Source of the DNA: Alphaproteobacteria bacterium
GTDB taxonomy: Bacteria; Pseudomonadota; Alphaproteobacteria; RF32; CAG-239
Assembly (NCBI GenBank): GCA_017477185.1
Contig: JAFUXF010000026.1
Span: forward strand, 2,215-66,214
DNA length: 64,000 nt
Direction of reading: 5' to 3'
The position numbers and the translations under genes are program-made. This document shows positions 2,931 through 26,728 of this stretch, piece after piece (position 1 is the first letter of the stretch; every line of letters starts with the position of its first letter). Below the pieces are notes generated by a model. The model did not search any database. It was not told where the DNA came from and saw nothing but the letters and a program-made list of their open reading frames with translations.

Positions 2931-3899
2931 TTATGTTACTTCGGTAACTGCGCGTAAGTTTCCATCTCGGTTTATTTGGACAACGCGTAATTTTTTATGC
3001 ATTTCTTCTATGGTTTTACCTCTGTCAATACTCGGATAGCTATGTAAAATACGATCAACAAAAGCCTCATATGCCGCTTCTGAACTCTCTGCGTGAATCG
3101 TTGCTAAACAGTTATCATGCCCTGATCCCATCAACTCCCATATTGCTCCGGCATTGTTGGTTGAAATCTCACCGCCGATAATCGCATCCGGCGTAAAACG
3201 AACAACCAAGTCAATAATTTTTGCATAGTTAAAATCATTTGTTTGCTCGGTACGAGACATCACAACGTGGACACGATTGGGGTGGGGAACGATTAGTTCT
3301 CGCGTATCCTCGATAGTTATAATTCGTTTATGAATATCTAATATTTTTAATAAATTATTTAAGAATGTTGTTTTACCTGTTGCGGTTGCACCACTAACCA
3401 AAATATGATCACCGCGTTTAATGCTTAACAACAGTCTTTCATAAGGATCTTCCGGATCTTTAATTGCACGGAGCGGATTGATTTTATGAAGTCCTTCGCC
3501 TTGCTTTAAACCATAATCTCCCAGACCAAACGCAACATCGTCGCTATGAACACGAATAGTCAGCGCAATGCCTCCGGTTAAGTCATCTTGATCATACATC
3601 ACATTTTTACCGCAAATCGCAGAAAAACGATGATCTCCCGGAATCGTTGCGTAAACAACCGGTGTTCCCTGTATCGGATCAAACGGAAGTTCATAAGTAT
3701 TAGCAATAATATATAACAAATCCGTTAGATATTCTTTGCTTAATTTTTCATCTTTATACAGCACCCACGGGTAAGCTCTTTTACCGCGTAAACGAAGCCA
3801 TATTTGCCCCGAACGATTGATGGCAACTTCTTCGATATTTTCCTGATTATACCAGTAAGCTAGAGGCCTTAAAACAGATTCTAATACTTTAAAACTCAT
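2931..3899 (-). CDS. virB11: VirB11-family T4SS ATPase
   Basis: Walker A motif SGATATGKTTFLNNLL. Asp-box/His-box context IITIEDTRELI ... GHDNCLATIHAESS. The 322-aa size and position next to VirB10 fit VirB11. Confidence 0.9.
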   Translation of the reverse strand: MSFKVLESVLRPLAYWYNQENIEEVAINRSGQIWLRLRGKRAYPWVLYKDEKLSKEYLTDLLYIIANTYELPFDPIQGTPVVYATIPGDHRFSAICGKNVMYDQDDLTGGIALTIRVHSDDVAFGLGDYGLKQGEGLHKINPLRAIKDPEDPYERLLLSIKRGDHILVSGATATGKTTFLNNLLKILDIHKRIITIEDTRELIVPHPNRVHVVMSRTEQTNDFNYAKIIDLVVRFTPDAIIGGEISTNNAGAIWELMGSGHDNCLATIHAESSEAAYEAFVDRILHSYPSIDRGKTIEEMHKKLRVVQINRDGNLRAVTEVT

Positions 3900-3912: not shown

Positions 3913-6900
3913 TTAGAAAAGTTGCGGTATGCTACTGTTTGAAGAAGATGATGAACTTGTTGTCGGCGGCGGAGGCGGCGGCAATGTTCCCGTCGCGGAG
4001 GCTGGTGCCGGAGTTGTTTGTGTCGGCTTATCGTCGACTAACTTTGCCGTTGGTGCGCTTTCTGCGGCAGATGGCGTATCTCCACCGCTGCCACTATAAA
4101 CGACCTGACCACTTCCTTCTCGAACACGTTTATCCGTCACTGCTTTATCATCAATCAAAACCGGACTCCTTCTATCATCTCCTGTACCTGTACCTTCAGG
4201 ATTTCGATCTTCCGTTCTCATCCATAAATCCGTATTTGGATAAATAATGATTCTTGTTCCTGCAGGAACATAAGTCAGAGGCTTAATATTAGCCTTATCT
4301 TGTAAAATTTGCTCAAAAATCTGATTCATATCTTGCAAGAAATTTTCTCTGGCATCATTTGCTGCCTGCTGTTTTGGTGTTTCAACTTCTCCATTTGAAT
4401 TCTCATCATCTGCCATCATATAAGAAGCATAACTGGTTAAGGCCGTTGTCATAATTGGTAATGTATATTTCTTAAACAACTGTTGATCCAGATACCCTAA
4501 AGCTCCTCCTCGTCCTTGCGCATCTGCTGTCAAACCATTAAATTTGAACATTGAGCCATCCGGACGAATCAGACGCTCCCAAGAAATATCAACTTTGGCA
4601 GAAACAGATGTTGTTTCTGACGTTCCAGTCAGTCCGCCTAATGTTCCTATTAAATGGCTACCCGCCGGAATAATAATATTACGCCCTTCTTCGGCATAAA
4701 CATTGCGTTCGACATATGCTGTTACTGGGGTTGGATGATTACTGTCAATTGATCTGGCAATAACTGCAGGAATAGGCTTGTCTGCCAATATCATTTCACT
4801 CATATCAACACGCCATGAAGACATTGTCTTACTAATCCCCTGATCTGACCAATCTTCTTGCATTCCATCAAAAGACCGTCTATCGACATTTGAACTGATT
4901 TTGCCTACCGACATTCCGCTTCGACGAATTTGCTGAGCAGCTCCTAGTGCGGCCGCTCTTTGAGGATCATATCTTTCTCCCGGTCCGAATCCACCTCCAG
5001 GTCCTAAGTTTGTTCCGGGACCGGTTCCCGTCCCATAAGCACCACCATGACCAAAAGTTCCTTGAGGGACGAACATTTCCGCACCCTTTTGCGGACGCGT
5101 GCTTTCTTCTATACCAATTAGTCCACCCTCTTTATCTATAATCAAACCATCCGGCGTTCGTCGACCAATCTGATTTCCTTTTTTATCGACCACCGTTCCG
5201 TCTTCCATGATATCGCCAAGATACTCTCCATCAGGGGTTAAAGCGACACCAAGTGCTGTCCGATATTTTTCCGTACCTTCCGGAGACACACCAATTTTTG
5301 GAAGTTTCGTTGTCTTATCTTTTGGGCTTCGACTAAACCATACTTTTTTTCGTCCTATAGTGTCAAAAGGATCTAACAGTTTATTTCTCCCTCTATGACC
5401 TATAATATTACCATTTATATCAGTAACTGTTCCATCATCCAGTACTTTGCCGATAACCTTACCCTCTAAATCAATAACCGTTCCATCCGGTAAGACACGA
5501 CCGATAATATTGCCATTTTCATCAAAAACTAGATCATTGGCATTAACACGACCGATAACATTACCGTTTTCATCAACAATTTCACCGGAGGAGTTTACTT
5601 TTCCTATTACATTACCCTCAAAATCAACAACTGTTCCGTCAGGCAAAATTCTACCAATAACATTACCATCCTCATCAAAAGCTAAATGGCTGACATTGGC
5701 TCGTCCGATAACATTACCGTCAGCGTCGACAACTGTTCCATCAGGTAATACTCTTCCTATTTTTTTGCCATTTAAGTCAACGACTGTTCCGTCTTCTAAT
5801 ACCCTTCCAATAAGGTTACCATCTTTATCATAAACTAAATTTGCCCTATCGACTGTGCCAAGAACCTTTCCTTCATCATCAACAATTTCTCCTGCAGCAT
5901 TCAAATGCCCAAGCAATCCGCCACCTAAATTAACAACGGTTCCATCCGGAAGCAACCGGCCGATAATATTACCATCTTCATCATATGCAAATGAAGTTTT
6001 GTTAACTTTTCCTATAATTTTACCATTTGCATCGATAACAGAGCCATCTGCTTGAACTTTTCCTATAATTTTGCCATTCACATCGACAACAGAGCCATCT
6101 GATAAAACATGACCTATAACATTACCATTTTCATCAAAAGCCAACGTGCTAACATCTGCATATCCGATAACATTTCCATCTGCATCAACAACTGTTCCAT
6201 CCGGTTGTATTTTCCCGATGACATTCCCATCTAAATCCACTGCCGTTCCGTCAGCTAAAATTTTACCGATAATGTTGCCGTTTTCATCATATATATAAAC
6301 CGTTGTCCCATCTGATGTGTCTGGGGAGACTATCTTACAATTTTTATCAATAATCTCTCCTCTCAAATTAATTTTTCCTAATATATTACCTTTTTTATCA
6401 AAAGCAAATTTTGTTATATCCGTTTGCCCGATAACCTCACCTTTTCTATTAACGACATTTCCCTGTGCATTAATTTGTCCTATCATTTGGCGGTCTTTAT
6501 TGAAAGCCATGCCTTCGCGATTTATTCTACCGATAATTTGTTCGCTTTTATTAAAAATAAAATTACCGGCATCTGCTTGTCCGATGACTTTATTGCGCTT
6601 ATTAACCACATCTCCGTTTAATTTCAGTCGTCCAATGACATTATCATCTTTATCGACAGCAACACCATCCATTTTCACTTTACCGATAATATTGTCGCTT
6701 TTATCTAATATCAGAGTATGATTATGTGCTGTCCCTAAAAATTTATCTTTTTCATCAAACACACGTCCATCTGCGCTTAACATACCAATCATCTTGCCTG
6801 CTGAATTGACAACCGTGCCATCGATTTTTACTTGGCCGACAACGTTACAGAATAAATCATATACTAAATTATCATCATCAGCGCGACCAATAATGTTTCC

Positions 6901-9900
6901 ATCTTTATCAACAACCGTGCCATCAGGCATAATTCTGCCTATTACGTTTCCCGCTTCATCAAAAGCAAATTTACTGACATCAGCCTGACCGATAATGTTT
7001 CCATCTTTATCAACAACTGTTCCGTCTGCTCTAACCATGCCAATAACATTACCGGCAAGATCCACAACTGTTCCATCAGGCAAAACACGACCGATAACAT
7101 TACCATCTTTATCAAAGACTAAATCACTTATATCTGCGTGCCCGATGACTTTTCCATCTTTATCAACGACTGTCCCGTCTGATTTAACACGACCAATTAC
7201 ATTACCGTTCATATCGACAACTGTTCCATCTGTCAGAACTTTTCCGATAATATTGCCATTTTCATCATAAACATACCGATCGCTTGTCGTTTGCGCAATA
7301 ATATTACCATCCTTATCAATTACATCCCCATTATCTTGTAATTTTCCGATAATATTGCCATCTGCATCTACCACATTGCCTTCAGCATCAACGAATCCTA
7401 TAAACTTGCCATTTGCATCAAATAGTTTTGTCATATATGTTTGAGCGTGATAATATTGCAAAGGATGAGCTTTTGCGATAAATTTTCCGGTAGAAGAATT
7501 TATCTCACCTTTGGCATTCAATAAACCTAAAACTTCGCCATTAAAATCTGTTAGTTCACCTTTAAGCGTTAATTCTCCCAAAATCTGATAGCTGTTGTCT
7601 CGAATGATAAAATCTCGATTACCTCGTCCAATCAATTGATTGTCTTTATCAATCAAGAAACCTTGTTTCATTTCTCCTAAATGACTTCCTTGCGGGGATA
7701 GCACATTTCCTTCTTTGGTAATGTACCCCATTACTTTGTTGTCTAAATCATAAATATAAAAATCATATAGGGCATAACCAATATTTCTGCCTTTATTGGT
7801 TATATTACCATAAAAATCAACCTGTCCGAGATTTTCACCCTTAGAATTTGTAACTTGCCCATCTGTGCCAACATATCCAATATATTTATCCTGTAGATTG
7901 AAGGCGACACGATATTTAAATAAATTTCCAATCGGCATACCGTTTTCGGAATTAACATTACCATTAGGTTGCATATACCCTATTATTTTATTTTTACTAT
8001 CGGCTACTTTACCGGTTAAAAGCGTTCTTCCTAAAATTTGTCCTTTAAAATTCATAACCGGATAATATTCAATTTGATGTGCTAAAACTGCGCCATCTGC
8101 ATTTTTTAAATACCCTCTTCTGTCAACACAACCTAAAACTTCATTATTATAATTCAAAACCTGCCCGTTAGCAGAGACGACACCGATAATGTCTCCCGTA
8201 AAATTAATCATAGCATTAGGGAATGCGGCATAGCCTATATATTCTCCGATTTCACTGACAACCTGTCCGTTAGGAAGAATCCGTCCTTGAACAATATCTC
8301 GATAGTTACGAACATATCCTCGCGGTGTTACTACCCCCAAAAATTCGCATTTATCATCAATAATTGAGGCATACTTAACAAGTTGTCCTACCCATACCTG
8401 ATTATTATCAAAAACATCTCGACCGTTTATAATTTTACCCAAAGTGCTTCCCGTAAAATCACGGACAATTCCGTTTACTCCCGTATAACCGAGGATATTT
8501 CCGCTAAAATTCATAACCATTGCATTATTATAGGCATTACCGTTTTTAGGACTGATGATATTTCTGCTACCGGCTTTATCTTCTACTGTCGATAAATCAG
8601 GCAATATTTTCGCGACATAAGAATCGCCACGGCTCACCATATTGTTAACGCCGATTTGACCTAAAAGTTCCCCCTGATTATTAACGACATTTTCAATATC
8701 TAGCACTTTGCCGATAATTTCATTACGTTCGTTAATACTGATGCCTGCTTGCGTTAATTTGCCGACGGTTATCGCATTTTTATTTTGCAAATCTCCGCTC
8801 GGCATAACATAAGAATCAATACTCCCCTTTTCATCATATATGGCGGACAGTCTATAACATCTTCCGGAATTTTTACCATCTGCCGTAAACATATATCCGA
8901 ACGGAGATATAAATTTCTTTTCTCCGTTATCATAAACGATACCATTGATGCCGGCTATTCCTAAAATTTTGTTATTACTATTGACGGAAAGAATATTATC
9001 AAAACTTCCGCCAACTACTCGTCCGGTATTGTCATAAGCGATATTTCCCAACATATAACCGGTTGCCGTACCATCCATTTTAGCAACGATACCGTTTTTC
9101 AGGGCCTGATGCGTTAATGTCCCTTTATAATCGAAAACAGGACCGGAATTGACAACTTTACCAATCAATTCATCATCTTTACCATAAACAAATCCTCTGG
9201 CACCAATATATCCAATGATTTCCGTGGCTCTGGCAACTTTTCCTTCCGGCAGAACACGCCCTAAATAAGTTCCCGAAAAATCTGTTGCTGTGGCAGCAAT
9301 ATCAATTGTTGAACCAATGACTTCTCCGCTATCTTTTACAACCATTCCGTCTGAACGCATTTTGCCTACTAATGTTTCTTTATTGAAAACCTCACCATTA
9401 TAAGTTACAAACCCCAGATATTTCCCTCGATTATCTATAGCATATTTACTACGGACAATACTTCCGATAATGTTTTCACTATCATTGTATACATAACCAT
9501 TTGCTTTAATATGGCCGATATTTTTACCTTCAAAATCAATAACGCTTCCCCCCGGAGCAATACTTCCGATAAAATCTCCTTGATTAGAAACAACCATTTT
9601 TGATGAAATTAAACGCCCCTCTAAAGCGATATCACTACCGATACGACGAAAAGCATATCCGTCTGCAGAAACAAAACCGATTTCTTGTCCTTGCAGATTG
9701 CTGTATGTTCCGTTTCCGGTAAAACGCCCGATTGTTTGTCCATCATCAGAATAGATCAGCCCCGGGAATAAAACGGCACCGATAATATTAAAAAATTCAT
9801 CAATAACCAAGCCGTTTGGTAGAACTCTAGCAACAATTTTTCCTGAAGGGAGGCGAACTGTTCCATCGTTTCCTACTTTTCCCAAAGGTTTATTATCGTT

Positions 9901-10161
9901 GCCGACAGCCACACCTTGCGGAACCACGCCACCAATCACTTTGCCGTTAAAATCAACGATTAAACTGTCCGCGGTTACATTGCCCAGTAATTCATTTTTC
10001 AGCCCAACAACTTTACCATCAGGAATAACTTTACCGATAACTTCACCATTAAAATTTATTGCTGTAATTTCTTGCGCCGATGCTTCTGCGGCTGAAAAAA
10101 CGTTTATTCCGCCGATTAAACCAGCAATAACAATAAATTTTAACATCCATTTTTTTATCAT
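3913..10161 (-). CDS. virB10: giant VirB10/TrbI-domain protein (~2080 aa): signal peptide, ~1600 aa of degenerate 17-aa repeats, Gly-rich linker, VirB10 C-terminal barrel domain, Pro/Ser-rich tail (CagY-like architecture)
   Basis: The C-terminal segment IPAGSHLIGT, ISWERLIRPDGSMF, TADAQGRGGALGYLDQQLFKKY and YVPAGTRIIIYPNTDLW aligns motif-for-motif with the canonical VirB10 barrel (IPRGSLLVGEY / VVWNRLVRPDG / TDALGRAGLSGHVDNHWFERF / IPQGHEFQVY). The likely true start is the internal ATG at 10159..10161 (MIKKWMLKFIVIAGLIGGINVFSAAEASA-QE), which has an SD-like GGATGG upstream. The ORF track extends the frame to 10254. Confidence 0.85.
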   Translation of the reverse strand: MIKKWMLKFIVIAGLIGGINVFSAAEASAQEITAINFNGEVIGKVIPDGKVVGLKNELLGNVTADSLIVDFNGKVIGGVVPQGVAVGNDNKPLGKVGNDGTVRLPSGKIVARVLPNGLVIDEFFNIIGAVLFPGLIYSDDGQTIGRFTGNGTYSNLQGQEIGFVSADGYAFRRIGSDIALEGRLISSKMVVSNQGDFIGSIAPGGSVIDFEGKNIGHIKANGYVYNDSENIIGSIVRSKYAIDNRGKYLGFVTYNGEVFNKETLVGKMRSDGMVVKDSGEVIGSTIDIAATATDFSGTYLGRVLPEGKVARATEIIGYIGARGFVYGKDDELIGKVVNSGPVFDYKGTLTHQALKNGIVAKMDGTATGYMLGNIAYDNTGRVVGGSFDNILSVNSNNKILGIAGINGIVYDNGEKKFISPFGYMFTADGKNSGRCYRLSAIYDEKGSIDSYVMPSGDLQNKNAITVGKLTQAGISINERNEIIGKVLDIENVVNNQGELLGQIGVNNMVSRGDSYVAKILPDLSTVEDKAGSRNIISPKNGNAYNNAMVMNFSGNILGYTGVNGIVRDFTGSTLGKIINGRDVFDNNQVWVGQLVKYASIIDDKCEFLGVVTPRGYVRNYRDIVQGRILPNGQVVSEIGEYIGYAAFPNAMINFTGDIIGVVSANGQVLNYNNEVLGCVDRRGYLKNADGAVLAHQIEYYPVMNFKGQILGRTLLTGKVADSKNKIIGYMQPNGNVNSENGMPIGNLFKYRVAFNLQDKYIGYVGTDGQVTNSKGENLGQVDFYGNITNKGRNIGYALYDFYIYDLDNKVMGYITKEGNVLSPQGSHLGEMKQGFLIDKDNQLIGRGNRDFIIRDNSYQILGELTLKGELTDFNGEVLGLLNAKGEINSSTGKFIAKAHPLQYYHAQTYMTKLFDANGKFIGFVDAEGNVVDADGNIIGKLQDNGDVIDKDGNIIAQTTSDRYVYDENGNIIGKVLTDGTVVDMNGNVIGRVKSDGTVVDKDGKVIGHADISDLVFDKDGNVIGRVLPDGTVVDLAGNVIGMVRADGTVVDKDGNIIGQADVSKFAFDEAGNVIGRIMPDGTVVDKDGNIIGRADDDNLVYDLFCNVVGQVKIDGTVVNSAGKMIGMLSADGRVFDEKDKFLGTAHNHTLILDKSDNIIGKVKMDGVAVDKDDNVIGRLKLNGDVVNKRNKVIGQADAGNFIFNKSEQIIGRINREGMAFNKDRQMIGQINAQGNVVNRKGEVIGQTDITKFAFDKKGNILGKINLRGEIIDKNCKIVSPDTSDGTTVYIYDENGNIIGKILADGTAVDLDGNVIGKIQPDGTVVDADGNVIGYADVSTLAFDENGNVIGHVLSDGSVVDVNGKIIGKVQADGSVIDANGKIIGKVNKTSFAYDEDGNIIGRLLPDGTVVNLGGGLLGHLNAAGEIVDDEGKVLGTVDRANLVYDKDGNLIGRVLEDGTVVDLNGKKIGRVLPDGTVVDADGNVIGRANVSHLAFDEDGNVIGRILPDGTVVDFEGNVIGKVNSSGEIVDENGNVIGRVNANDLVFDENGNIIGRVLPDGTVIDLEGKVIGKVLDDGTVTDINGNIIGHRGRNKLLDPFDTIGRKKVWFSRSPKDKTTKLPKIGVSPEGTEKYRTALGVALTPDGEYLGDIMEDGTVVDKKGNQIGRRTPDGLIIDKEGGLIGIEESTRPQKGAEMFVPQGTFGHGGAYGTGTGPGTNLGPGGGFGPGERYDPQRAAALGAAQQIRRSGMSVGKISSNVDRRSFDGMQEDWSDQGISKTMSSWRVDMSEMILADKPIPAVIARSIDSNHPTPVTAYVERNVYAEEGRNIIIPAGSHLIGTLGGLTGTSETTSVSAKVDISWERLIRPDGSMFKFNGLTADAQGRGGALGYLDQQLFKKYTLPIMTTALTSYASYMMADDENSNGEVETPKQQAANDARENFLQDMNQIFEQILQDKANIKPLTYVPAGTRIIIYPNTDLWMRTEDRNPEGTGTGDDRRSPVLIDDKAVTDKRVREGSGQVVYSGSGGDTPSAAESAPTAKLVDDKPTQTTPAPASATGTLPPPPPPTTSSSSSSNSSIPQLF
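5300..9950 (-). repeat. in-frame degenerate tandem repeat array (~51-bp period; peptide unit ~DxxGNVIGRVLPDGTVV) inside the giant virB10 gene
   Basis: The protein track shows dozens of consecutive GN(V/I)IG(R/K)(V/I)xxDGTV(V/I)D units. The most regular copies are at ~5300..7260, and progressively degenerate copies run toward the N-terminus. The mirror-image plus-strand ORFs (PITLPSxSTTVPSG...) are the antisense reading of the same repeats. Confidence 0.65.
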
Positions 10162-10186
10162 ATTCCATCCAGCCTTTAATTTTTTA

Positions 10187-13100
10187 TCAGTTCCTACGGT
10201 TTTTAGCAACTTCCGGCAAAGCATACCCAGAAATCTGCTTATCCATATTAACAAATGAGCCGTTATTTTTTATGTATCCGCTTTCTTTTCCCATTTCGTC
10301 GACAACAATTCCTTTAGCATTCAATCTCCCGATATATTTGCCTTCATTATTCAATATTGTTGCTCCAATTTTATATATTTTCCCCAAAATATTTTCGTTA
10401 CTATCAACTGCTAAATCGTTAGAGACGACACGTCCGACAACGACACCGCTGTTGTTGGTAATTTTACCATCAAAATTAACATAGCCTACCATTTTATCTG
10501 AGTTATCAATAACAATATCGCCGTCCAAAATATCCCCATACAACTTTCCATTACTGCTGATAACTTGTCCATCAGATAACACTCTGCCGATAACGATATT
10601 TTCTTTGTCGGCAACGGCCCCATTGGGCAGTGTTACGCCAGCTAAATTACCACCGAAATCAATAATTGTACCTCGTTTAAGTAACGTCAAATTTTTATCC
10701 GATGAGCCACCAGGAAGAATTGCAGAAATAACCGTGTTATTCAAATCAAGAACGTCCCCTAATGTGTTTGTATATCCTTGATAATTTCCCCAAATATCTA
10801 CTAAAATATTTTCCGGTAATATTTCACCAATCAATTTTCCTTGTACATCAACAGCTTTACCATCGGAAGTCGTATGCCCGACAACTTTACCATTTACGCT
10901 CAAAATCTCACCATTTTTCAAGCTGTAGCCTAAATATTGACCATCATACCCTACCGCAGCCCCTGTTTTGACAAGACCTCCCAGATATTCTCCTTTGTCA
11001 TTAAAGAAATTACCTTTGCCATCTATTTTTCCAAGTATTGCCCCATACGGACTGACAACTTTTCCATCATAAGATACAAGCCCTAAGCCTTTACCATTGA
11101 AATCAACAACTTGTCCTTGCTCAACGGGAACACCTATTTGATGATTGAAAAATCCAAAACCATCACCTATAATTTTTCCTAAATTACCACCTCTCATATT
11201 ATAAACACTCCCATCAGGGAATAATCTTCCTAAAAATTCTCCTGAAGCATCTATAAAGGAGGTTTTTTCATTCATCAGCACGCCAATAACTTTATTTGAC
11301 GAATCAGCAACTAAATTATTTACAAAAATCTTTCCTGCTTCCTTACCGACTAATCCGATTTCTCCGTTAGAATCGACAATATTGAGGAAATTTCCATTTA
11401 AGTCATACGCATAATTTTTTTCAAGAACATGACCTATGTACTTTCCATCATCATCAAAAACATCGCCATTTATGCCAACGCATCCTATTATATCCGAATT
11501 TGAGGAAACAACGTGATTATCATCAGATATTCGTCCCAAAAACAAACCATCATATCCTATTGCAACACCTTGTTTTCTTATTGCTCCGACAATATCTCCC
11601 TGTTCGTTTAAAACTGTCCCGTCCGGATTTATACAACCGACATACGTTCCTTCCGGTGTTTTAACAATACCATCAGAACCAGCCTCTCCGAGATATACGC
11701 AATTATTATTATATACAGAACCGATTTTGCTTATCTCTCCCACATATTTTCCCGTACTGTCAACGACGACACCATCGAACATAATTTTCAGCTTGGTATC
11801 CGTTATCCCTTTCATAATTTTACCGTTTTTATCAAGGTATCCGATATTTTTACAGCCATACCCGACAGCCATGCCGCTTCGTACCAATTTACCAATAACT
11901 TCCGAACCTGCCGGATCTTTTACCAAACCATTTGCCAAAACCCTGCCTATAACTTGCCCTTCTTTTTCGACAGTTCCTTGATTAGAAATCGTTCCTAAAA
12001 CGCTACCATCAGGAGCTATCGGTAGCATTTGCATCTGCACCAAGGCACCAATACTCTTACTGAATCGGCTTATAATATTCCCTTGAGCATCAATGTAGCC
12101 GATTAATTGACCACTACCATCATAGATTTGACCATCTGATGTTGCATACCCGATAATTCGCCCATTTTTATCCAAAACAAGATTAACGAAATCCCCTGCT
12201 TTGCCGATAATATTACCATTGGCGTCAACCAATGTTCCATCATCAAGCATCTTCCCTAAAATATTTCCTTTAAAGTCCACAACATTTCCGTTTTCATCCA
12301 CATATCCTATGACGTTACCATCTTTATCATAGGCTAACCGCCGCAAATCATCAACACTCAACTCTGACGCATAACCGATGACATTACCATCTTTATCAAC
12401 AACTGTTCCATCAGAAAGAACTGTACCAATAATATTTCCATTGGCATCCACAACATTTCCGTTTTCATCAATATATCCTATCATATTGCCGTTTTTATCA
12501 TAAGCAATTTGCGGCCGATGTGCTGCTTTAGCTGTTCCGATAAGATTGCCTTTTGCATCGTAAATATTACCGTTTTTATCTATTTTACCAATAACGTTTC
12601 CGTTTAAATCCACCATGGTGCCATCCGGATTAACTTTTCCAACTAATTTTCCGTTGGCATCATACATATTACCGTCGGCATCAACATAGCCCATAATCTT
12701 ACCATTAGAATCATATAGAATCTGCTTGGCTGCCTGTTCAATATTTTTTGCTTTTCCGATTAGACGACCATTCGCATCATACATATTGCCGTCTTTATCT
12801 AATTTACCAATAATATTTCCTTTTAAATCAGTAATTGTTCCATCCGGATTAACCTTTCCTATCAGCCTACCGCTGGCATCATACATATTACCATCGGCAT
12901 CTATTCGACCAATAATATTGCCATTATTATCATACAAAATTTTTTCTTTATTTTTGGATGCTGCGGCTTTTCCAATAACGTTGCCATTATTATCCACCAC
13001 CGTGCCATCAGCCAACATCCGTCCTATAGCATTTCCATCCTTATCGACAACTGTTCCATCCGGATTAACATAACCAATGACTTTACCGTTAGCATCATAA

Positions 13101-14380
13101 ACTAATCGACGATTTTCGTCGGCATGCCCTTTTATATTTTTAGTAATAACATTGCCATCTTTGTCAATAAAGCCAACGACCTTCCCATCTTTATCAACGA
13201 CGCTGCCATCAGGCATCACAATACCTAAAACATGTCCGTCTTTATCTATTGCAACACGGCCTTGCTTACTGACGCGCCCGAGGATTTTTCCATCAAGTCC
13301 GATAACCTCACCATTCTTATTTAGGCGACCAATCACATTTCCTTCGCTATCAACCACACTACCATCTGATAAAACACGCCCGATAATATTACCATTTTCA
13401 TCATAAACAAAACCGGCATCAACAGCTTGTCCGATAACATTTCCATCGGCATCAACAACTGTCCCGTCAGGTAACGCTCTTCCTATTATTTTTCCGTTTG
13501 CATCAACAACCGTTCCATCTGCGAGAACTCTACCAATGACATTGCCATTTGCATCATAAACTAATCGCTGATTTTCTGCCACTCCAATAATATTGCCGTT
13601 TTCATCTACAATCATGCCATTGGCATTAACTCTTCCTATTACATTGCCATCGGCATCTCGAACATACCCGTCCTCATCTATTGTGCCAAGAATTTCACCA
13701 TTAGCTCCTATTGCATAACGAACATTTGTATTTGAAGCAGGTGTCCCCTTTGCTAACCCAAGACTTGTCGGATCACAAAAATTACAATCTTCTTTGAGAA
13801 TCGCTTTACCCTCAACAGGCACTTTTTGCGATTTATTGCTCCCTGAACTTAAATTAGCTTCACGCCATGTAATAATAAAATTATTTTGAACATTACCGGC
13901 AACGACAGGTACCCAGTTCATTGTTATATCACAAGTCTGATGACCTCTTAACACTTGGTTACTGCACTCTTCTTTGAACGAAAAGCCATCAAAAGGCGGC
14001 TCGGCTAGTTCAACCGAGACAATACGAACACTGACCCGTCCTGTTGTCCCTATCGTCAACACATTTTTAGCATCTGTTCCAATTACAACTTGCCCCATAG
14101 CGATAGGATTAGGTGTTGTTGTAATTGGTAATTCTCCATTATCAACCGTTTCAAATTCTATACTTTCCTGAATCGGGTCTTCACTCCGGATATCTAAGGC
14201 ATCATCACTTGCCGTAAATACCGGTGCCATATATTGCTCCTCTTCCTCCTCATCACGCATTAAAAGTAATAAACCAAGAATAAAAATGACTAAAGAAATA
14301 ACACCAACCATAATAATTATATGGTTAGTTTTTCTTACATAATTTTCTGATCTGGTTAAAATTTCTCTTTCATCTTTCAT
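10187..14380 (-). CDS. giant membrane-anchored repeat protein (1397 aa) with the same GNVIGRV..DGTVVD repeat family
   Basis: The N-terminus MKDEREILTRSENYVRKTNH plus TM IIIMVGVISLVIFILGLLLLM gives a type II anchor, like the VirB10 N-terminus. It is followed by an acidic stretch, a Cys-containing domain, then ~35 repeat units. The gene lies between virB9 and the giant virB10, separated from the latter by a 25-nt spacer. Confidence 0.7.
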   Translation of the reverse strand: MKDEREILTRSENYVRKTNHIIIMVGVISLVIFILGLLLLMRDEEEEEQYMAPVFTASDDALDIRSEDPIQESIEFETVDNGELPITTTPNPIAMGQVVIGTDAKNVLTIGTTGRVSVRIVSVELAEPPFDGFSFKEECSNQVLRGHQTCDITMNWVPVVAGNVQNNFIITWREANLSSGSNKSQKVPVEGKAILKEDCNFCDPTSLGLAKGTPASNTNVRYAIGANGEILGTIDEDGYVRDADGNVIGRVNANGMIVDENGNIIGVAENQRLVYDANGNVIGRVLADGTVVDANGKIIGRALPDGTVVDADGNVIGQAVDAGFVYDENGNIIGRVLSDGSVVDSEGNVIGRLNKNGEVIGLDGKILGRVSKQGRVAIDKDGHVLGIVMPDGSVVDKDGKVVGFIDKDGNVITKNIKGHADENRRLVYDANGKVIGYVNPDGTVVDKDGNAIGRMLADGTVVDNNGNVIGKAAASKNKEKILYDNNGNIIGRIDADGNMYDASGRLIGKVNPDGTITDLKGNIIGKLDKDGNMYDANGRLIGKAKNIEQAAKQILYDSNGKIMGYVDADGNMYDANGKLVGKVNPDGTMVDLNGNVIGKIDKNGNIYDAKGNLIGTAKAAHRPQIAYDKNGNMIGYIDENGNVVDANGNIIGTVLSDGTVVDKDGNVIGYASELSVDDLRRLAYDKDGNVIGYVDENGNVVDFKGNILGKMLDDGTLVDANGNIIGKAGDFVNLVLDKNGRIIGYATSDGQIYDGSGQLIGYIDAQGNIISRFSKSIGALVQMQMLPIAPDGSVLGTISNQGTVEKEGQVIGRVLANGLVKDPAGSEVIGKLVRSGMAVGYGCKNIGYLDKNGKIMKGITDTKLKIMFDGVVVDSTGKYVGEISKIGSVYNNNCVYLGEAGSDGIVKTPEGTYVGCINPDGTVLNEQGDIVGAIRKQGVAIGYDGLFLGRISDDNHVVSSNSDIIGCVGINGDVFDDDGKYIGHVLEKNYAYDLNGNFLNIVDSNGEIGLVGKEAGKIFVNNLVADSSNKVIGVLMNEKTSFIDASGEFLGRLFPDGSVYNMRGGNLGKIIGDGFGFFNHQIGVPVEQGQVVDFNGKGLGLVSYDGKVVSPYGAILGKIDGKGNFFNDKGEYLGGLVKTGAAVGYDGQYLGYSLKNGEILSVNGKVVGHTTSDGKAVDVQGKLIGEILPENILVDIWGNYQGYTNTLGDVLDLNNTVISAILPGGSSDKNLTLLKRGTIIDFGGNLAGVTLPNGAVADKENIVIGRVLSDGQVISSNGKLYGDILDGDIVIDNSDKMVGYVNFDGKITNNSGVVVGRVVSNDLAVDSNENILGKIYKIGATILNNEGKYIGRLNAKGIVVDEMGKESGYIKNNGSFVNMDKQISGYALPEVAKNRRN
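10300..13710 (-). repeat. in-frame degenerate tandem repeat array (same ~17-aa family) inside the 1397-aa gene
   Basis: Repeated DANGNVIGRVLADGTVVD / DENGNIIGRVLSDGSVVD-type units are visible in the translation. Degeneracy increases toward the C-terminus. Confidence 0.6.
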
Positions 14381-15960
14381 TGCGTTCTAACCACGCTGCA
14401 AAATACACCATTTCTTCCTAATCGACTGCAGACATCATCACCTTCCTGCAACGTCTCAATCGGACCAACTCTTAAATGAAACAGTTCTTTTCCTTGTCCG
14501 TCAGCAGCCGCATCAACCGAGAAAAATGGTTCATATTGTTTTAATGTATCAGAATATTTTTTAGATAACGAGCCCCATAAGCTCTCTAAATTACTGACAT
14601 TACTATCTGTCCCCAACTCTATAGATATATTGCTGTTGTCTGCAAACATCAGTCCTTGTCCTTTACCTCCTCTGTTAGCATAACTGCCTTCCGGTGCATA
14701 ATTTCCGTCGTTTGTAATACGTTGCATATTGGCATAATCAAAATCCCCCTGATTATTTCCATATCCAGGACGATAAGTAATATTCACGCCACCGTTTGGA
14801 TTTTGGCTGTAATTTGATAAAACAAAATTTCCACTGCCACTTGACATATTGTCTCCACCACTATTATCACCCAATCCGCCATTCTTGCCTGGGATTGGGG
14901 CCGGAACTTGCCATTGATGTTCATCTAAATCTTTAGTAGTCGGTGCAAATTCTAATCCGGCTTCATCAGAACGTCTCAATTTCAGACAAACCATTCTCTT
15001 ACCATTCCGCATAACCATATCGCCTATACCCTCAACGATGATTAAGCGATTATTGGGTCCTTTTGTTCTAAAGCCAACCGGCACTTCCAGACGTTCAACA
15101 ATCAGCGTTACGATAGGGCGTTGCGTCATTGTCAATGATTTTTCCCCTAAATCAATATAAGTAAAAATATCATCTCGCCATACTCGTTCCGGTGCAATGA
15201 CAACATCCTCAGGATTTGGAATATAGACTTCAACATCAAACCTAAATTTTGAAGCATCTAGAGGAATAGATTTTATCCAATCTTCTCTTTGAAAACTTTT
15301 AGTAAATAAAGAATCGACAGATTTATTCGGCCCACCTCTATAGGTTGAGGCATTTACTCCGCTGTGTCCACCAATACTTCCCGCAGAAACTCCTGCACCA
15401 CGAGATCCTGACGGACCGTCAATCACATCAACATCGATAATTGAGTTTGTCAGTCGTTCTGTGTTTACCCCTTCACTCTTCAGATAAAAGACATACTTAT
15501 TACCGCTTCTGCCAAAGATCACAATATTTGTATCCACTCCAACATTTGCTCCTTTTTTAGGATAAAGGAGCACTGTGTTCGGACCGGAAATTTGTCCGTC
15601 AAAGCTCGAGCTATCACCTAAATAAATATCCTCAACTAATTCCCAACTCGGAAAATTAAGTAAAGTAATCATTCCTTCTCTCACACGAATTGGCAATATT
15701 AAATCCGGAGACCAATAATATTTGGAATAAGCAGGCTTGCTTTGCCCTTCTCCCAAGTTTTGCAACGGATCAAGCCACGCACTTTGCGTCATTCCCAAAG
15801 CATTAAAGCCGGCATATCCCATATTCATAGGCATGTACATTCCCTGACTCTGATCAGCATTCTGATCCAAGCTCCCCATAGTTGCCTGAGAGCGTGCATT
15901 TTGAGTACCGCTCATTATGATGATAATTAAAAATAAAATTCGACCAAATGCCTTAATCAT
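14377..15960 (-). CDS. virB9: enlarged VirB9-like protein (527 aa): signal peptide, VirB9 N-domain, G/N-rich spacer, possible C-terminal SPOR-like domain
   Basis: The VirB9 N-domain pattern is present (GDSSSFDGQISGPNTVLLYPKKGANVGVDTNIVIFGRSGNKYVFYLKS, resembling 'gn.l.vKP...TNL.V.Td.r.Y.F.L'). The C-terminal ...GKELFHLRVGPIETLQEGDDVCSRLGRNGVFCSVV resembles the yRVrvGPf...A..lC..L...G..C.vv end of SPOR domains. The size is comparable to CagX-type VirB9 proteins. Confidence 0.7.
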   Translation of the reverse strand: MIKAFGRILFLIIIIMSGTQNARSQATMGSLDQNADQSQGMYMPMNMGYAGFNALGMTQSAWLDPLQNLGEGQSKPAYSKYYWSPDLILPIRVREGMITLLNFPSWELVEDIYLGDSSSFDGQISGPNTVLLYPKKGANVGVDTNIVIFGRSGNKYVFYLKSEGVNTERLTNSIIDVDVIDGPSGSRGAGVSAGSIGGHSGVNASTYRGGPNKSVDSLFTKSFQREDWIKSIPLDASKFRFDVEVYIPNPEDVVIAPERVWRDDIFTYIDLGEKSLTMTQRPIVTLIVERLEVPVGFRTKGPNNRLIIVEGIGDMVMRNGKRMVCLKLRRSDEAGLEFAPTTKDLDEHQWQVPAPIPGKNGGLGDNSGGDNMSSGSGNFVLSNYSQNPNGGVNITYRPGYGNNQGDFDYANMQRITNDGNYAPEGSYANRGGKGQGLMFADNSNISIELGTDSNVSNLESLWGSLSKKYSDTLKQYEPFFSVDAAADGQGKELFHLRVGPIETLQEGDDVCSRLGRNGVFCSVVRTQ

Positions 15961-15970: not shown

Positions 15971-16720
15971 TTATTTTGATTTATTACGCATTAAAGAATA
16001 TTGTACCACTGTAAATCCTACAGGATTATTCAAACGATCATTAAACTTGACAGATTTTCGGCGATAAACCACACGCAAAGATGCTGTCCAATAATTAATC
16101 TCCGGTGCAGATGATGACGGATACATATCTGTCGTTTCGTATTCTACTTGCCACAAACCGCGTCCCAGCTCATTAACTGTCAAAATATTAACTCTTCGCT
16201 GTAATCCTCTTTGTCGAACCAAATCTAAAGCTCGCCTAGCCGTTTTATTAATAAACTCATCATATACAGCAGATGATGACATTTCCTGAATTGGACCACC
16301 CGGAAGCCAGCGAACTTCCATTTCTGCCTCATCATTAACAATTGTGCTGCGTTGGAGAACATAACTTCGAACAAATGTTTCCGTAATGGATTTGTTTTCG
16401 ACTAAATCTCCACTGTAAGGTACAATATTATATATTTGTTCTTCTTTATTTTGAAATGTCAGCAAATACGGCTCAACTCTAAACAAAGGAATAACCTGAG
16501 CAATAGCAAGTAACAAAACAATATTACAGCATAAACTGACAACCATGATAACAGCAAAAGCACGCGCTGTCCACAAATAACGTTTTTCGTTATTATTTGC
16601 AACAAACACATTTTCTTGTTGAGGACGGCGCATTTGAGAACGCGAACTATTGTTCAGATTTGCTCTGCCTATCAGTTTCTGCTCGCTATTATTACCAAGC
16701 TGATTTGCCATCTGTCGCAT
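15971..16720 (-). CDS. virB8: VirB8-family protein (paralogue 2; bitopic, NTF2-like)
   Basis: Single TM (FAVIMVVSLCCNIVLLLAIAQVIPLF) after a cytoplasmic N-terminus. The C-terminal signature NNPVGFTVVQYS matches the VirB8 NPxGFxVxxY motif. Confidence 0.8.
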   Translation of the reverse strand: MRQMANQLGNNSEQKLIGRANLNNSSRSQMRRPQQENVFVANNNEKRYLWTARAFAVIMVVSLCCNIVLLLAIAQVIPLFRVEPYLLTFQNKEEQIYNIVPYSGDLVENKSITETFVRSYVLQRSTIVNDEAEMEVRWLPGGPIQEMSSSAVYDEFINKTARRALDLVRQRGLQRRVNILTVNELGRGLWQVEYETTDMYPSSSAPEINYWTASLRVVYRRKSVKFNDRLNNPVGFTVVQYSLMRNKSK

Positions 16721-16726: not shown

Positions 16727-16930
16727 TTAAATTGTTTCAATAAACCAATCCGGCAAATCTTTAGGTAATTCAATATGCATACATGCACAAGGTGATAATT
16801 TTAATTCATCCACACCTTTACCCACGCCTACGGGTTCAGCCTCATAATATGACCCAAAAATACCACAGGAGGGCAACATTATGACTGCAACTACCATTAT
16901 AATTTTTTTTATCATTCTGAGATACCTCAT
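16727..16930 (-). CDS. small lipoprotein (67 aa), VirB7-like by position between the two virB8 genes
   Basis: Signal peptide MIKKIIMVVAVIMLPSC-G with Cys at the cleavage position, and a short mature part. Its position corresponds to VirB7 in T4SS operons. Confidence 0.4.
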   Translation of the reverse strand: MRYLRMIKKIIMVVAVIMLPSCGIFGSYYEAEPVGVGKGVDELKLSPCACMHIELPKDLPDWFIETI

Positions 16931-17013: not shown

Positions 17014-17769
17014 TTATAAACCCTCTACTTGAGTTTGCGAATAACGAAGAACTGTAAAGCCTAACGGATTGATAAGACGCATACCGGAAAACATACGCTC
17101 TTTAATAAATACTGCCGTGATTGAAGCTGTCCAATACCGAACTGTCATTAACATATCTTGCGAAACATTATTTGTTTCTTTAGGGCTCAGCATATAAGTC
17201 TTAAAATCAACTTTCCAAACGGGACTATGTTGTCCACCGATACGGCGTACCGCAATAATTTCTGTTTCTTGTACAATGCCCTTACCGATAACATCATTCC
17301 ATAGTTTATCTCTGTAAACTGAAAATTCATCAAAAACATATGGGGAAGACAGAAAATTTACCATACCTCCCGGCAACCATCTGTTACGCATTTCTATTTC
17401 ATCGTTTATAATGGTATTGCGCAACTCTATATATTGGCGAATATACATATCGACCAATTTATCTCTTGAGGGCATATTTATCCCTATGCTTTCTGCACGC
17501 ACAATACCTTCACTGCTATCCTGAGATACTACTAAAAACGGCTTTACCGTTACTTGCGGGGCTAGTCGAAAAAGGGCTAGTGATGCGCTGGTAAATAAGG
17601 ACAAAGACAATATGGTTAAAAAAATGAAAAAACGCACTAACCACATATAATACTTGAGTTTAAAGTTTTTTTCATCTTGTTCATATTGTTCGATAAATTC
17701 CAGACGGTGTTCTCTATTTCCATCTGTAATTTCTAAAATTCGACTTCCTTCTAGTTTATTTACAGCCAT
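17014..17769 (-). CDS. virB8: VirB8-family protein (paralogue 1)
   Basis: TM FFIFLTILSLSLFTSASLALF. C-terminal INPLGFTVLRYS VirB8 signature. Clearly diverged from the second copy, so both are likely functional. Confidence 0.8.
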   Translation of the reverse strand: MAVNKLEGSRILEITDGNREHRLEFIEQYEQDEKNFKLKYYMWLVRFFIFLTILSLSLFTSASLALFRLAPQVTVKPFLVVSQDSSEGIVRAESIGINMPSRDKLVDMYIRQYIELRNTIINDEIEMRNRWLPGGMVNFLSSPYVFDEFSVYRDKLWNDVIGKGIVQETEIIAVRRIGGQHSPVWKVDFKTYMLSPKETNNVSQDMLMTVRYWTASITAVFIKERMFSGMRLINPLGFTVLRYSQTQVEGL

Positions 17770-17778: not shown

Positions 17779-20700
17779 CTAAAAATTGCCTGCGAGTTGT
17801 GAACAATAGATATTACCGATCTGATGCAACATACGCTTGAATTCCTTATCTGCCTCTTGTTTTTGTTTCGCTAAAACTTGACGATTTGTCTTTTCCGATT
17901 TTATTTTTTCCTCTAAATCAGCATCTGCTTTTGAGTTATCTGATACAACAGTATATGCTCCGTCATCTTTTTGGAAGACTTTTATCAAATCATTTATTTT
18001 CTGTATTCTTTGTTCAATAATCTCATTGTTATTATTTTGAAATGTCTTGACTTGAGAGGCGGCTGTAGAGATTAATTGGTTACGATACCTCATCAAAGTT
18101 TCATATGCTAATTTGTAGTCATCTTCATTAGCTAAATCAAAATCTTGTGCCGGCGTAAAACCGATTTTAGTAAATAATTCATATAAAGGTTTTTTGGCTT
18201 TTTCAATTTCAAACTGCATTTCAGCTTTGTTTTGACGACTCTGTTGCTCGTAATCTGCTCGCTTTAAGAAATCTCCGATTTGATTTTGGTGTAAACTGGC
18301 AATATCAAATAAAATATCTTTTTGCTCTATTTCTGTATTCGAATCTTTGTGGACATCTGACAGGCGTTGGAAAACATCTTTTGCCAATGCGTTATATTTT
18401 AAGCCATTATCGTATGTTAATATGTGTCCCAGCTCACTCATATTTTGTGAGGGTTTAAACTCACTTAATGATTTTACTTCAGCTATACCTGAAACATCAT
18501 CTGCAAGATTTTTCACGGTATAGTACAATCCTTTTCCTGATACTTCAATATCATAGCATGGATTGCATCCTTCCGCTTCAAGTTTTTTCCAGATTTGAGT
18601 TTCTTTTTCTTTTTGCTCTGTATCAAACATTCTGGCTGTAGCCGTGTATAATCTGTATCTATCCCCTGTTGAAGTAACCAAAAAATTTTTGTATAAACAC
18701 GGAAACATTCCGCCACTGGCCAGTCTTTCAACAGAAGGACGAATGACCGTACTTAAATCTATTTCTTTTTCAACATACGCCGGTTTTCTTAAAATATATT
18801 TCCAAATTTCGGGAACAAACGCGAGGTTGTTCAGTACACCTTCTGATGTAACCAATCCTGATGCACTTCTTGGAATATTGTCATATGTTCCGTAATCGAA
18901 ATAAAGGGTTTCCCTTATCGTCGGCAACGGAACATCCGGAACGGACTTCGGGGCACGGAAATCGCGGTGTTTACCTTCATTACTAACAAAATATTCAACA
19001 TCCGGTTCTTGACAATAATTATGCAAGCAGGCTTCTTCTACAATATATTTTTGGTAAATTGCTCGCAATAAAGACATAATCTCCCCATATGAGCTGTATG
19101 CACCGATATTTGAACTGTATTCAGTCAGTTCTTTTGTCGGCAATTCTCTCAGCTTGTTCATCAATTGCTTATGAATATCAACAACTTGTCTATGATTGTT
19201 GGGATTGTATAAACTATCTCCCATTGCATAAAGCTGATCAATTGTATCTTTTACCAATTCCTCTGCCACACCTCTTGTATCTACAACCAACTGATTAGCA
19301 TTGTTAAGTATTTCCGGTAAGCTAAAAAGATAGGGCGTTTCATCATCAATCATTGTCGGAACGCTAAAATGACTTTGAAAATATGAACTTAAATCCAAAT
19401 TCTTTACTTGGTCAATGGTATCAGCATACCTTTTTTCTTCATCTTGAATTTTATTATCATTTGCAACTGTTATCGCATTAGCCTCATTGGCATATGCATC
19501 ATTAACTTTTTGAATAGATAAAGGTATCTCCGTTTCTAATTTTGTTTTAAGTATATTTAATTGAGCTGTTGTTTCTTCTATCTTTTGATTAACATCAGCT
19601 AACTTTTGTTTTAGGGCTAATACTTTTTCTCGGTTTTCGCTCAAAACATTTTCCGTTTCGGCAATTGCATCAGGTTCATCATACTCTGTTTCAGTTATTT
19701 GAGTCTCGCTTCTTATATAAGTTTTGACAGATGAATCTTCATCTGCTTTTGGTGCTGTTTGCGAAAGCTGAGCATTTACAAGTTGTTGTGTTTGGCGATA
19801 AATTCCTTGTTCTATAAAGTAGCTTTGCTTTTCATTATCTGCCGGCAATTCTTTTTGATAAGTTTCCGTTGAGTTTTCTATCGCCTTAATACCAAGCCCA
19901 TCTTTTTCTTTTTGCAGTAATGTTTTTATTTTAGTCTCTGCACCGGATATTATTGTTTCAGCTTGTAAAATTTCTTCTTCCAGATCTTGTCTTTGAATAT
20001 TTAATGCATCTAACTGAGCTTGACTTCGATTTATTTTATTTACGAGTGTTTCTTTTTCTCGCTCAATATTAGCTAATTGCTGCTCTTTCCTATTATATAA
20101 AGCGTTTAATTTTTCTTTTTCTTCCGCAACCAGAGCATCAACATTATTGGTTATATTATTATTTTCCCTTAAAACTTTATCTTGCAAAAGTGCTAAAGCA
20201 TCAGCATTGTGTTGTTTTTCATCATAGTCCTCAACTAAATTATTCAGTTGTTCGGCAACTTTTAATGTTACTTCCAGGACATTAATTGCATTTAAGCGTT
20301 GTATGATTTTATCGTATTTTCCTTCTATATACTGATTGTAATAAGATTGCGTATCTTTCCATACGGGATAGGCTTTTTTTATTCTTCCCCACTTGCCGTT
20401 TATACCATTTTCTGCCTGATCCTTTGCTAGCATTTTGGCTGCTTCTGAACCGATATTCCATGCTAATTTTTCGCTGGCTTTGAGTTCTTCATCAACCTTC
20501 TTCTCTTTTGCTGCATTTTTAAAACCACCGCTTTTTTTATTAATTTGTGATTTAAGGCGGTCAGCTTGACTTAAATCAGAGCTATCAACCCCCTCCGTAG
20601 AAACGTTTAATTCACTAAAATCATCTGCTTCAGCAACAACTCCTGTATCTATTGCTTTTGCCACATTATATGCCTTTAGTGCCCAACCGGAAATTCCTTT

Positions 20701-24318: not shown

Positions 24319-24322
24319 TTTC

Positions 24323-26653: not shown

Positions 26654-26728
26654 AGTACCCTCCTTTGAGAAGCCTTGATTATTTATTCTAACAAAAATTT
26701 GCATGAGGATAAACAATATTCTGCTTCA

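Follow-up and report, generated by a model that had tools for sequence, protein, structure and literature searches.

A giant VirB10 of gut Alphaproteobacteria, probably cut in two by an ancient gene fission

What is the protein encoded between virB9 and the gene with the VirB10 barrel in a type IV secretion system (T4SS) operon of a gut alphaproteobacterium, and does it belong to VirB10 itself? The operon lies on the minus strand of a stretch of 64,000 nucleotides of contig JAFUXF010000026.1 (Alphaproteobacteria bacterium, lineage CAG-239; assembly GCA_017477185.1), called the window below. Two neighbouring genes, A and B, occupy the position of virB10 between virB9 and virB11, the same order being found in related loci, and their products of 1397 and 2082 amino acids (aa) consist largely of beta-hairpin repeats. 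We conclude that A probably is the inner-membrane-anchored front half of a giant VirB10 that was cut in two by one ancient gene fission. According to the comparisons reported here, the N-terminal module of A, composed of the tail, a transmembrane (TM) helix, an Ig-like domain, a CxxC motif and the first repeats, has its homologue at the N-terminus of single-chain VirB10 proteins, and A is an orthologue of the N-terminal third of genuine TrbI-family members. The arrangement in two genes is conserved and represents the derived state of a single, monophyletic clade.

The N-terminus of A consists of the basic stretch MKDEREILTRSENYVRKTNH, followed by IIIMVGVISLVIFILGLLLLM and then RDEEEEEQ. AlphaFold2 (AF2), supplied with an alignment of 22 homologues, models one long helix over residues 10-42; together with a rule-based call it gives A a cytoplasmic tail and a single TM segment, the bitopic inner-membrane topology of VirB10/TrbI proteins. 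The tail motif is also found in single-chain VirB10s, in the form SSSEQYVKKSNR, and the CxxC motif has its equivalent there in CGVC or CVIC; the acidic linker between them differs in sequence among orthologues. In Foldseek searches the Ig-like domain is closest to the ASH domains of HYDIN (2e6j) and CEP192 (6fvi), with E values of ~1e-6 and TM-scores on the target of 0.62-0.72. The corresponding Pfam family, ASH (PF15780), matches at 19.7 bits, below its cut-off of 27, and the NCBIfam choice-of-anchor D family is likewise sub-threshold. A profile of this domain also matches hundreds of very large proteins (P0140, P0145 and P0146 among them), which contain 5-36 tandem copies of the domain type and appear to be adhesin-like and without relation to T4SS.

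The repeats of A extend over ~1170 aa and are regular up to about residue 800 and degenerate beyond. Sequence identity at a lag of 17 residues amounts to 0.24-0.30 in A and 0.16-0.35 in B, compared with a background of 0.07-0.08. By the Pfam criterion the repeats belong to the beta-flower families: Bflower_2 matches A in 13 stretches above the gathering score (3e-102, 336.5 bits, cut-off 38) and Bflower does so with 6e-48 (162.4 bits, cut-off 25), and in B, where Tandem Repeats Finder returns periods of 51 and 153 nt, the Bflower_2 score is 419 bits. The AF2 model of residues 470-800 of A, computed from the single sequence, is all-beta, with confident blocks of ~68 aa that each contain ~8 short strands and are joined by low-confidence linkers; the model suggests that the repeat region is a string of small beta-flower modules. 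In the Protein Data Bank (PDB), phmmer found only marginal YD-repeat matches to the sequence of A, and Foldseek found no fold comparable to the repeat model, only local similarity to Rhs/teneurin hairpins.

In A, Pfam detects no TrbI domain at E <= 0.01, and by this criterion A alone is not a member of the TrbI family. The barrel is found in B, whose closest solved chains are ComB10, CagY, TrwE and TraF. B begins with MIKKWMLKFIVIAGLIGGINVFSAAEASA, followed by the cleavage point and QE, which reads as a signal peptide and conforms to the rules for Sec export. The first ~150 aa of the B repeats are conserved as strongly as the barrel. These features agree with what a first-pass annotation had read from the window: a 17-aa repeat family in both proteins, an upstream protein with a basic tail, a single TM helix and an acidic stretch and without a barrel, and a neighbour that has the barrel, lies 25 nt away in a different frame (the frames are one base apart) and carries a signal peptide in place of the TM anchor, the last point being supported by the cleavage-site rule across 72 orthologues. 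The annotation missed that public gene callers use an alternative start of B, the ATG at 10224, located 38 nt within A, which yields a product of 2103 aa. B may start at either ATG (10161 or 10224), and the predicted cleavage site is the same with both. The ATG at 10224 derives from conserved Tyr-Ala codons of A (TAT GCT) and recurs in ~10 other loci.

The relationship of A to VirB10 is revealed by giant VirB10s that have remained in one piece. They were reached by a search with the barrel region of B, from which more distant matches were followed. Five loci examined (L086, L087, L089, L090 and L093) share the virB8-virB9-virB10-virB11 context and contain one giant gene between virB9 and virB11. 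The clearest is L093, a 332-kb human-gut contig free of N runs, in which a single open reading frame (ORF) of 2496 aa, situated between virB9 and virB11, encodes the tail motif LLSSSDQYLKKSNR, a TM helix, the Ig-like domain, CGVC, 19 Bflower_2 stretches and TrbI at residues 2140-2338. A metagenome scan with the N-terminal module of an outgroup returned only three loci, one of which was L093. A profile of the first ~205 residues of A, searched against 1.84 billion cluster representatives, retrieved another eight single-chain proteins, all of them intact, 1498-2363 aa long and with the N-terminal module at residues 1-200 (P0189, P0196, P0233, P0236, P0243, P0264, P0222 and P0229); these representatives come without genomic context. 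The A profile matches the TrbI-carrying single-chain proteins with E values of 2e-25 to 5e-18. The C-terminal TrbI domain was confirmed with Pfam in the four of the eight that were scanned; in the remaining four the barrel was recognized by eye.

In nine intact ORFs of 1498-2496 aa, one chain thus combines the N-terminal module with the repeats and a TrbI barrel. In an alignment (A2) the N-terminus of A lines up with the N-termini of single-chain VirB10s, to part of which A is orthologous. The single-chain proteins share with the A/B pair the N-terminal motif, TM helix, Ig-like domain, CxxC, repeats, TrbI domain and a C-terminal ...LF, but they are encoded by one ORF that has neither an internal stop nor a signal peptide at the position where B begins. 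Their typical length is 2150-2500 aa. Four further single-chain loci are broken only by scaffold gaps, one frameshift or one in-frame stop. The frameshift lies in the giant gene of L087 (9995-10004) and the stop within a repeat of L090 (DANGN*IGTVD, 6516-6521), on a contig with a coverage of 3.8x; an assembly error or independent decay could account for each of them. Nearly all B proteins and single-chain giants, compared across loci L004-L096 and proteins P0189-P0264, end in ...[VI]P[QA]LF, ELF, RLF or RMF after a Ser/Pro-rich tail; this conserved C-terminal aromatic residue is encoded in B of the window at 3913-3930 (minus strand).

Much shorter single chains are found at a greater distance. 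P0137 (553 aa) possesses a TM anchor, an Ig-like domain and TrbI, and its virB8-virB9-virB10-virB11 locus also contains type IVb pilus genes; in P0138 (509 aa), which has the Ig-like domain and TrbI, a lipoprotein signal replaces the TM helix. The profile of the A N-terminal domain aligns with the right region of both in hhalign, weakly (E = 0.035-0.06), and our argument does not rest on this match.

The position of the cut was estimated with full-length hidden Markov models (HMMs), constructed from 28 orthologues of A and 45 of mature B and aligned to twelve single-chain proteins; they were needed because BLASTP windows are uninformative on the degenerate repeats. The A-HMM covers the first ~400-690 residues of most single-chain proteins: positions 3-695 align with residues 1-688 of F086 (370 bits) and positions 7-676 with residues 6-656 of P0264 (330 bits). 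The B-HMM is colinear from about residue 800 to the end in 7 of the 12, as in F087, where positions 6-792 align with residues 802-1595 (314 bits). The start of B falls at residues 794-933 in F087, F090, P0196, P0233, P0243 and P0264, and a partial alignment projects it to ~815 in P0236. The TrbI part of the B-HMM aligns at the C-terminus in all twelve. Where B begins, the single-chain proteins contain ordinary repeats with no trace of a leader; a module of the type that forms the N-terminus of B occurs twice in most of them, at ~355 and ~800.

The two-gene state is not peculiar to the window. Relatives of the N-terminal 238 aa of A occur in 206 species-level genomes, almost all of them metagenome-assembled genomes of gut Alphaproteobacteria, with labels that include uncultured Rhodospirillales, Azospirillum sp. 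51_20, CAG:495 and Candidatus Scatocola. In none of the 72 related loci with both genes are A and B joined in one ORF. In the 71 loci besides that of the window, A measures 1070-1834 aa and B 1351-2101 aa. The median of A+B is 2749 aa, and the pair of the window is the largest seen (3498 aa if B starts at 10224, 3479 aa if it starts at 10161). A ends with KNRRN in 62 of 72 orthologues, and in most loci AGGAAY plus the stop codon, a Shine-Dalgarno-like sequence, stands directly upstream of the B start. All three relative frames of A and B occur; in ~10 loci the frame is the same and a single stop separates the genes. The residue at -1 of the B cleavage site is small in all 72 orthologues (Ala in 70, Ser in 2), and that at -3 is Ala, Val, Thr, Ser or Gly in 68. 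The leader itself varies in sequence, and the mature N-terminus QEITAIDFNG is conserved. L094 and L096, the sister group within the two-gene clade, also show ...NRRN followed by a stop, and a signal peptide on B.

The direction of the change was derived from neighbour-joining trees of the TrbI region (400-470 columns), rooted on two distant short forms. The two-gene clade is monophyletic in 97-100% of the bootstrap replicates and nested among the single-chain lineages. These form a grade, being monophyletic in 1 of 60 replicates with twelve sequences and in 13 of 100 with four. One fission on the stem of the two-gene clade is the simplest account of the trees. The first-pass suggestion that A is the other half of an ancestral mega-VirB10, the downstream half of which gained an export signal, is supported by the single-chain orthologues and the derived position of the two-gene clade. 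The ancestor it envisaged, of more than 3400 aa, must be reduced to ~1500-2700 aa. It had also taken consistently separate, conserved genes without a longer fused variant to mean a pair of paralogues; the genes are indeed separate in 72 of 72 loci, and fused variants do exist.

From these data the following pathway can be proposed. In a clade of gut Alphaproteobacteria the giant gene would have been divided within its repeats, and B would have gained a Sec signal peptide at the break. A would be anchored in the inner membrane, and its N-terminus would face the cytoplasm, where the conserved 20-aa tail may act as the N-terminus of VirB10 and contact the ATPase complex at the inner membrane. B, which comprises the remaining repeats and the TrbI barrel and would form the outer-membrane part of the T4SS core complex, is presumably exported by Sec, cleaved at AxA|Q and assembled with VirB9 and VirB7 at the outer membrane. 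In the periplasm the halves would rejoin non-covalently through the conserved C-terminal module of A and the related N-terminal module of B. Matched amounts of the two proteins could be aided by co-transcription and by translational coupling, which is proposed because the virB9 stop overlaps the A start (as ATGA) and a Shine-Dalgarno-like sequence is contained in the last codons of A. By homology, A and B together may take over the bridging and energy-sensing role of VirB10.

The new termini created by the break are hot spots of conservation. Pairwise identity is 0.77-0.85 in the last ~45 aa of A and 0.75-0.83 in the first ~150 aa of B, compared with 0.34-0.5 in the other degenerate repeats of B. 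In profile comparisons, residues 982-1118 of A and 4-139 of B, a module of ~135 aa, match each other specifically and reciprocally with 54-84 bits. Because of this conservation and this match, the new termini are likely to dock with each other non-covalently and so make up for the lost peptide bond. Taken further, VirB10 would be bipartite: related beta-flower modules at the ends made by the fission would hold the two polypeptides of the bridge together, and with the ~160 beta-hairpins per A-B pair they would build a periplasmic scaffold unlike that of any solved T4SS; this picture we put forward tentatively, with slightly more doubt than confidence.

Several points weigh against an origin of A and B by simple fission and against the scheme built on it. 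The reassembly of the halves and the function of the cytoplasmic tail are deduced from sequence, and the signal peptide and TM calls come from rules and AF2 and not from a dedicated predictor. The split point lies in a repetitive region in which the HMM alignments have lower-scoring alternative registers. F086, F093, P0189, P0222 and P0229 yielded only partial B alignments, with a projected start of ~330-860 (~805-860 in F086 and F093, ~526 in P0189; P0222 and P0229 are too divergent to place), and with 100-aa BLASTP windows from A and B the degenerate repeats could not be located in F093. In P0243, positions 322-1022 of the A-HMM align with residues 612-1322 (239 bits), which overlap the region mapped to B. 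The Ig-like domain of A resembles that of the short VirB10 P0137 only weakly (hhalign E = 0.035). The trees are based on neighbour joining of 400-470 columns of one domain, and their root consists of two distant sequences. A+B, at a median of 2749 aa, exceeds most single-chain forms by ~400-500 aa, which means that sequence was gained at or after the split through some duplication or expansion.

This excess length also speaks for a different origin. The entire giant virB10 might have been duplicated in tandem and reciprocally reduced, copy 1 losing the 3' part with the barrel and copy 2 the 5' part with the anchor, so that A and B would be overlapping, truncated paralogues. The reciprocal match between the end of A and the start of B and the overlap of A-HMM and B-HMM stretches in P0243 point in the same direction. 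However, the strongest long alignments do not overlap (A from 1 to ~690, B from ~800 to the end), and beyond the 135-aa module no long colinear match connects distal A with proximal B, either in the pair of the window or between the profiles. Moreover, the B-type module is already present twice in most single-chain proteins, so that an older duplication within the protein can explain the likeness between the end of A and the start of B. BLASTP of 100-aa windows of A against B cannot be read for position-specific paralogy, the degenerate repeats defaulting to the canonical repeat. We consider duplication and loss unlikely. Of the two paralogous repeat proteins envisaged as an alternative in the first-pass annotation, what stands is the specific similarity of the ~135-aa C-terminal module of A to the mature N-terminus of B; as the main relationship between the genes, paralogy does not hold.

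Somewhat less probable still is that A took over another job after the split, as a periplasmic or peptidoglycan-associated scaffold or in an adhesin-like manner, and that B alone serves as a truncated, Sec-exported VirB10. The length of A varies widely across species, contact between A and B is only deduced from sequence, and Dot/Icm core complexes can form without DotG, the VirB10 homologue (PMC9371333). Yet A has kept its place between virB9 and the gene for the barrel, its overlap with virB9 and the cytoplasmic motif common to the single-chain VirB10s, and its C-terminus is strongly conserved beside an equally conserved N-terminus of B.

It is very improbable that two genes were the original state and that a fusion of A with B gave rise to the single-chain giants. 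Both states exist, and the loci in which a single in-frame stop separates A from B indicate that they could interconvert easily. The two-gene clade is nevertheless monophyletic within paraphyletic single-chain lineages, the single-chain proteins lack the relic of a signal peptide where B begins, and in the short distant relatives, as in the canonical VirB10s, one chain carries both the N-terminal anchor and the C-terminal barrel (PMC9371333). A sequencing or assembly error, or a recent pseudogenizing frameshift in one 3400-aa gene, which the first-pass annotation had also considered, can be dismissed with near certainty: a single-base indel would join the frames, and the B frame is open for 31 codons 5' of 10161 (unremarkable at 38% GC), but the identical 1397-aa A protein is found on 10 contigs read, the stop after A and the signal peptide on B are fixed in all 72 species-level loci in all three relative frames, and a hydrophobic leader amid a periplasmic repeat array would be senseless in a fused product. 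Three of the places with the identical A represent three separate sample assemblies, two of which show the same two-gene layout and an identical TrbI region; in the third the contig ends within gene B.

We therefore return to fission of a giant VirB10 and compare its products with known systems. VirB10 is expected to link the inner-membrane complex with the outer-membrane core (PMC9371333) and has been described as bridging the inner-membrane complex to the outer core and sensing ATP energy (Cascales and Christie 2004, as cited in PMC1919506). With the canonical proteins, VirB10 of Agrobacterium tumefaciens, TraF of pKM101 and TrwE of R388 (PF03743), the A/B pair shares the place in the operon between virB9 and virB11, the tail and TM helix in A and the TrbI barrel in B. 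Canonical VirB10s comprise ~380-450 aa in a single polypeptide and have a proline-rich linker. In the pair, by contrast, anchor and barrel are divided between two polypeptides, the place of the linker is taken by an Ig-like domain and ~2800 aa of beta-hairpin repeats, and the barrel half has a predicted cleavable signal peptide. The closest solved relative of the B barrel by sequence is ComB10 of Helicobacter pylori (PDB 2bhv), a short, single-chain VirB10 of a DNA-uptake system that, unlike B, has no repeats; the barrel is far nearer to ComB10 (E = 1e-21) than to CagY, TrwE and TraF (~1e-5).

Greatly enlarged VirB10 homologues are known. CagY of H. pylori has long internal repeats upstream of the barrel (PMC9371333), and the B barrel matches CagY chains. 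CagY is a single chain of ~1900 aa encoded in a pathogenicity island, and its repeats are, to our knowledge, unrelated in sequence to the beta-flower hairpins. The A/B pair, unlike CagY, is encoded in a conserved chromosomal operon of gut commensal-type genomes. DotG/IcmE of Legionella is likewise enlarged and has a second protein, DotF, beside it in the core complex and periplasmic ring (PMC9371333). Unlike DotF, the second protein of our system is a detached VirB10 N-terminus. DotG contains a repeat region and carries its barrel and its own N-terminal anchor on one chain, and we know of no derivation of DotF from DotG.

The name beta-flower was given in 2023 to a fold seen in AlphaFold models (Durairaj et al. 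2023, PMC10584680; PF21784/PF21785, clan CL0395), and the beta-flowers described are small single domains of ~96 aa, some of which are lipoproteins (PMC10584680). The repeats of A and B resemble them in the strong Pfam matches, the 17-aa hairpins, the turn of type [DNEQ]xxG and the AF2 blocks of 8 short strands. They differ from the described beta-flowers, closed small barrels of 4-6 hairpin petals, in that dozens are strung together within a subunit of a secretion system. Annotation pipelines name such proteins 'YD repeat-containing protein', which hides the identity of A. The hairpins indeed score above the cut-offs of the Rhs/YD-repeat families (TIGR01643, PF05593), and Foldseek detects local similarity to Rhs shells. 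Membership in the Rhs/YD-repeat proteins was rejected on account of the lack of an Rhs core or toxin domain, a TM-score of ~0.1 with an rmsd >20 A, the T4SS operon and the period of 17 aa. In the full-text literature searched, no description was found of a split VirB10, of the T4SS of these gut lineages or of a beta-flower VirB10. A Brucella paper considered as a precedent for a split VirB10 was rejected; it concerns small indels only. The family of beta-flower VirB10s of 1500-2700 aa in chromosomal T4SS operons of gut Alphaproteobacteria appears to be previously undescribed.

The operon of the window consists, in the direction of transcription, of virB4, unassigned ORFs, virB8, a small ORF, a second virB8, virB9, A, B and virB11 (Table 1).

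Table 1. Features of the T4SS operon and of genes A and B; positions refer to the window
Feature	Position	Strand	Remarks
virB4	26729-29218	-	
virB8, first copy	17014-17769	-	
56-aa lipoprotein-like ORF, VirB7 candidate	16727-16897	-	starts MVVAVIMLPSCG, resembling a lipobox
virB8, second copy	15971-16720	-	
virB9, CagX + SPOR domains	14377..15960	-	Pfam
Gene A, putative N-terminal half of split VirB10	10187..14380	-	1397 codons; ATG start; TGA stop 10187-10189
A, cytoplasmic tail, aa 1-20	14321..14380	-	motif (L)T(H)SExYV(K/R)KTN(R), nearly invariant in alignments A1 and A4
A, single TM helix, aa 21-41 (21 hydrophobic residues)	14258..14320	-	sequence and AF2 helix
A, acidic periplasmic linker, predicted disordered, aa 42-85	14126..14257	-	pLDDT <50 over 47-82
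A, Ig-like beta-sandwich, ASH/PapD type, aa 86-194	13799..14125	-	AF2 pLDDT 79-87
A, CxxC (CNFC), aa 199-202	13775..13786	-	cysteines invariant in A4, invariant or nearly so in A1
A, ~68 beta-hairpin repeats of 17 aa (beta-flower), aa 222-1383	10232..13717	-	Pfam, lag-17 autocorrelation, AF2
A, conserved C-terminal tail SGYALPEVAKNRRN, aa 1384-1397	10190..10231	-	last codons AGG AAC = Shine-Dalgarno-like AGGAA for B
Spacer, A stop to B ATG	10162..10186	-	25 nt
Gene B, putative C-terminal half of split VirB10	3913..10161	-	2082 aa from ATG at 10161
B, predicted signal peptide, aa 1-29, cleavage ASA|QE	10075..10161	-	-3/-1 rule across orthologues
B, ~94 beta-hairpin repeats, aa 30-1640	5242..10074	-	Pfam, periodicity, conservation profile
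B, TrbI/VirB10 barrel, aa 1791-1980	4222..4791	-	Pfam TrbI (PF03743) 8.9e-35, 120.7 bits, cut-off 35
virB11-type ATPase	2931..3899	-	directly downstream of B; Pfam

VirB9 ends in a SPOR (peptidoglycan-binding) domain at residues 446-525, the score of which is just over the Pfam cut-off. The small ORF is likewise found between both virB8 copies in L086, L087 and L089. The order virB8, B7, virB8, virB9, virB10, virB11 recalls the rvh system of the Rickettsiales. The latter has duplicated VirB8 and VirB9, plus RvhB7 (PMC2653234). ORFs without an assigned family (562, 226, 1401, 549, 226 and 797 aa) occupy 404-2824, 17779-21984 and 21996-26716 of the minus strand; among them the 549-aa product gives a weak TrbC/VirB2 pilin match and the 797-aa product a weak TrbJ match. 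Neither a VirD4 coupling protein nor a relaxase was found among the ORFs of the window scanned with NCBIfam and Pfam, nor was a VirB6 called. Directly upstream of the T4SS operon and on the same strand (29531-39707) is a type IVb pilus set composed of a PilS-like pilin, a T2SSF platform protein, a T2SSE ATPase, a PilP-like protein, PilO, a secretin and TcpQ; the pairing of T4SS and pilus genes recurs in a distant outgroup locus (L084). The region 40561-64000 contains genes of the housekeeping type (GT4 glycosyltransferase, alpha-amylase, M20 peptidase, ribosomal protein S1, family-5 solute-binding protein), and related T4SS loci adjoin dnaA, dnaN, yidC or flagellar genes. On the basis of these flanking genes, the T4SS appears to be chromosomal and vertically inherited and not plasmid-borne.

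VirB10, which is thought to bridge both membranes as one chain, would thus be made in two pieces in these bacteria. The split, present in more than 70 species-level genomes, and the intact single-chain relatives constitute a natural experiment on whether the bridge must be one chain and on where the halves touch. Proteins labelled 'YD repeat-containing protein' by annotation pipelines would prove to be core subunits of T4SS, and the recently named beta-flower fold would acquire its first clear cellular context.

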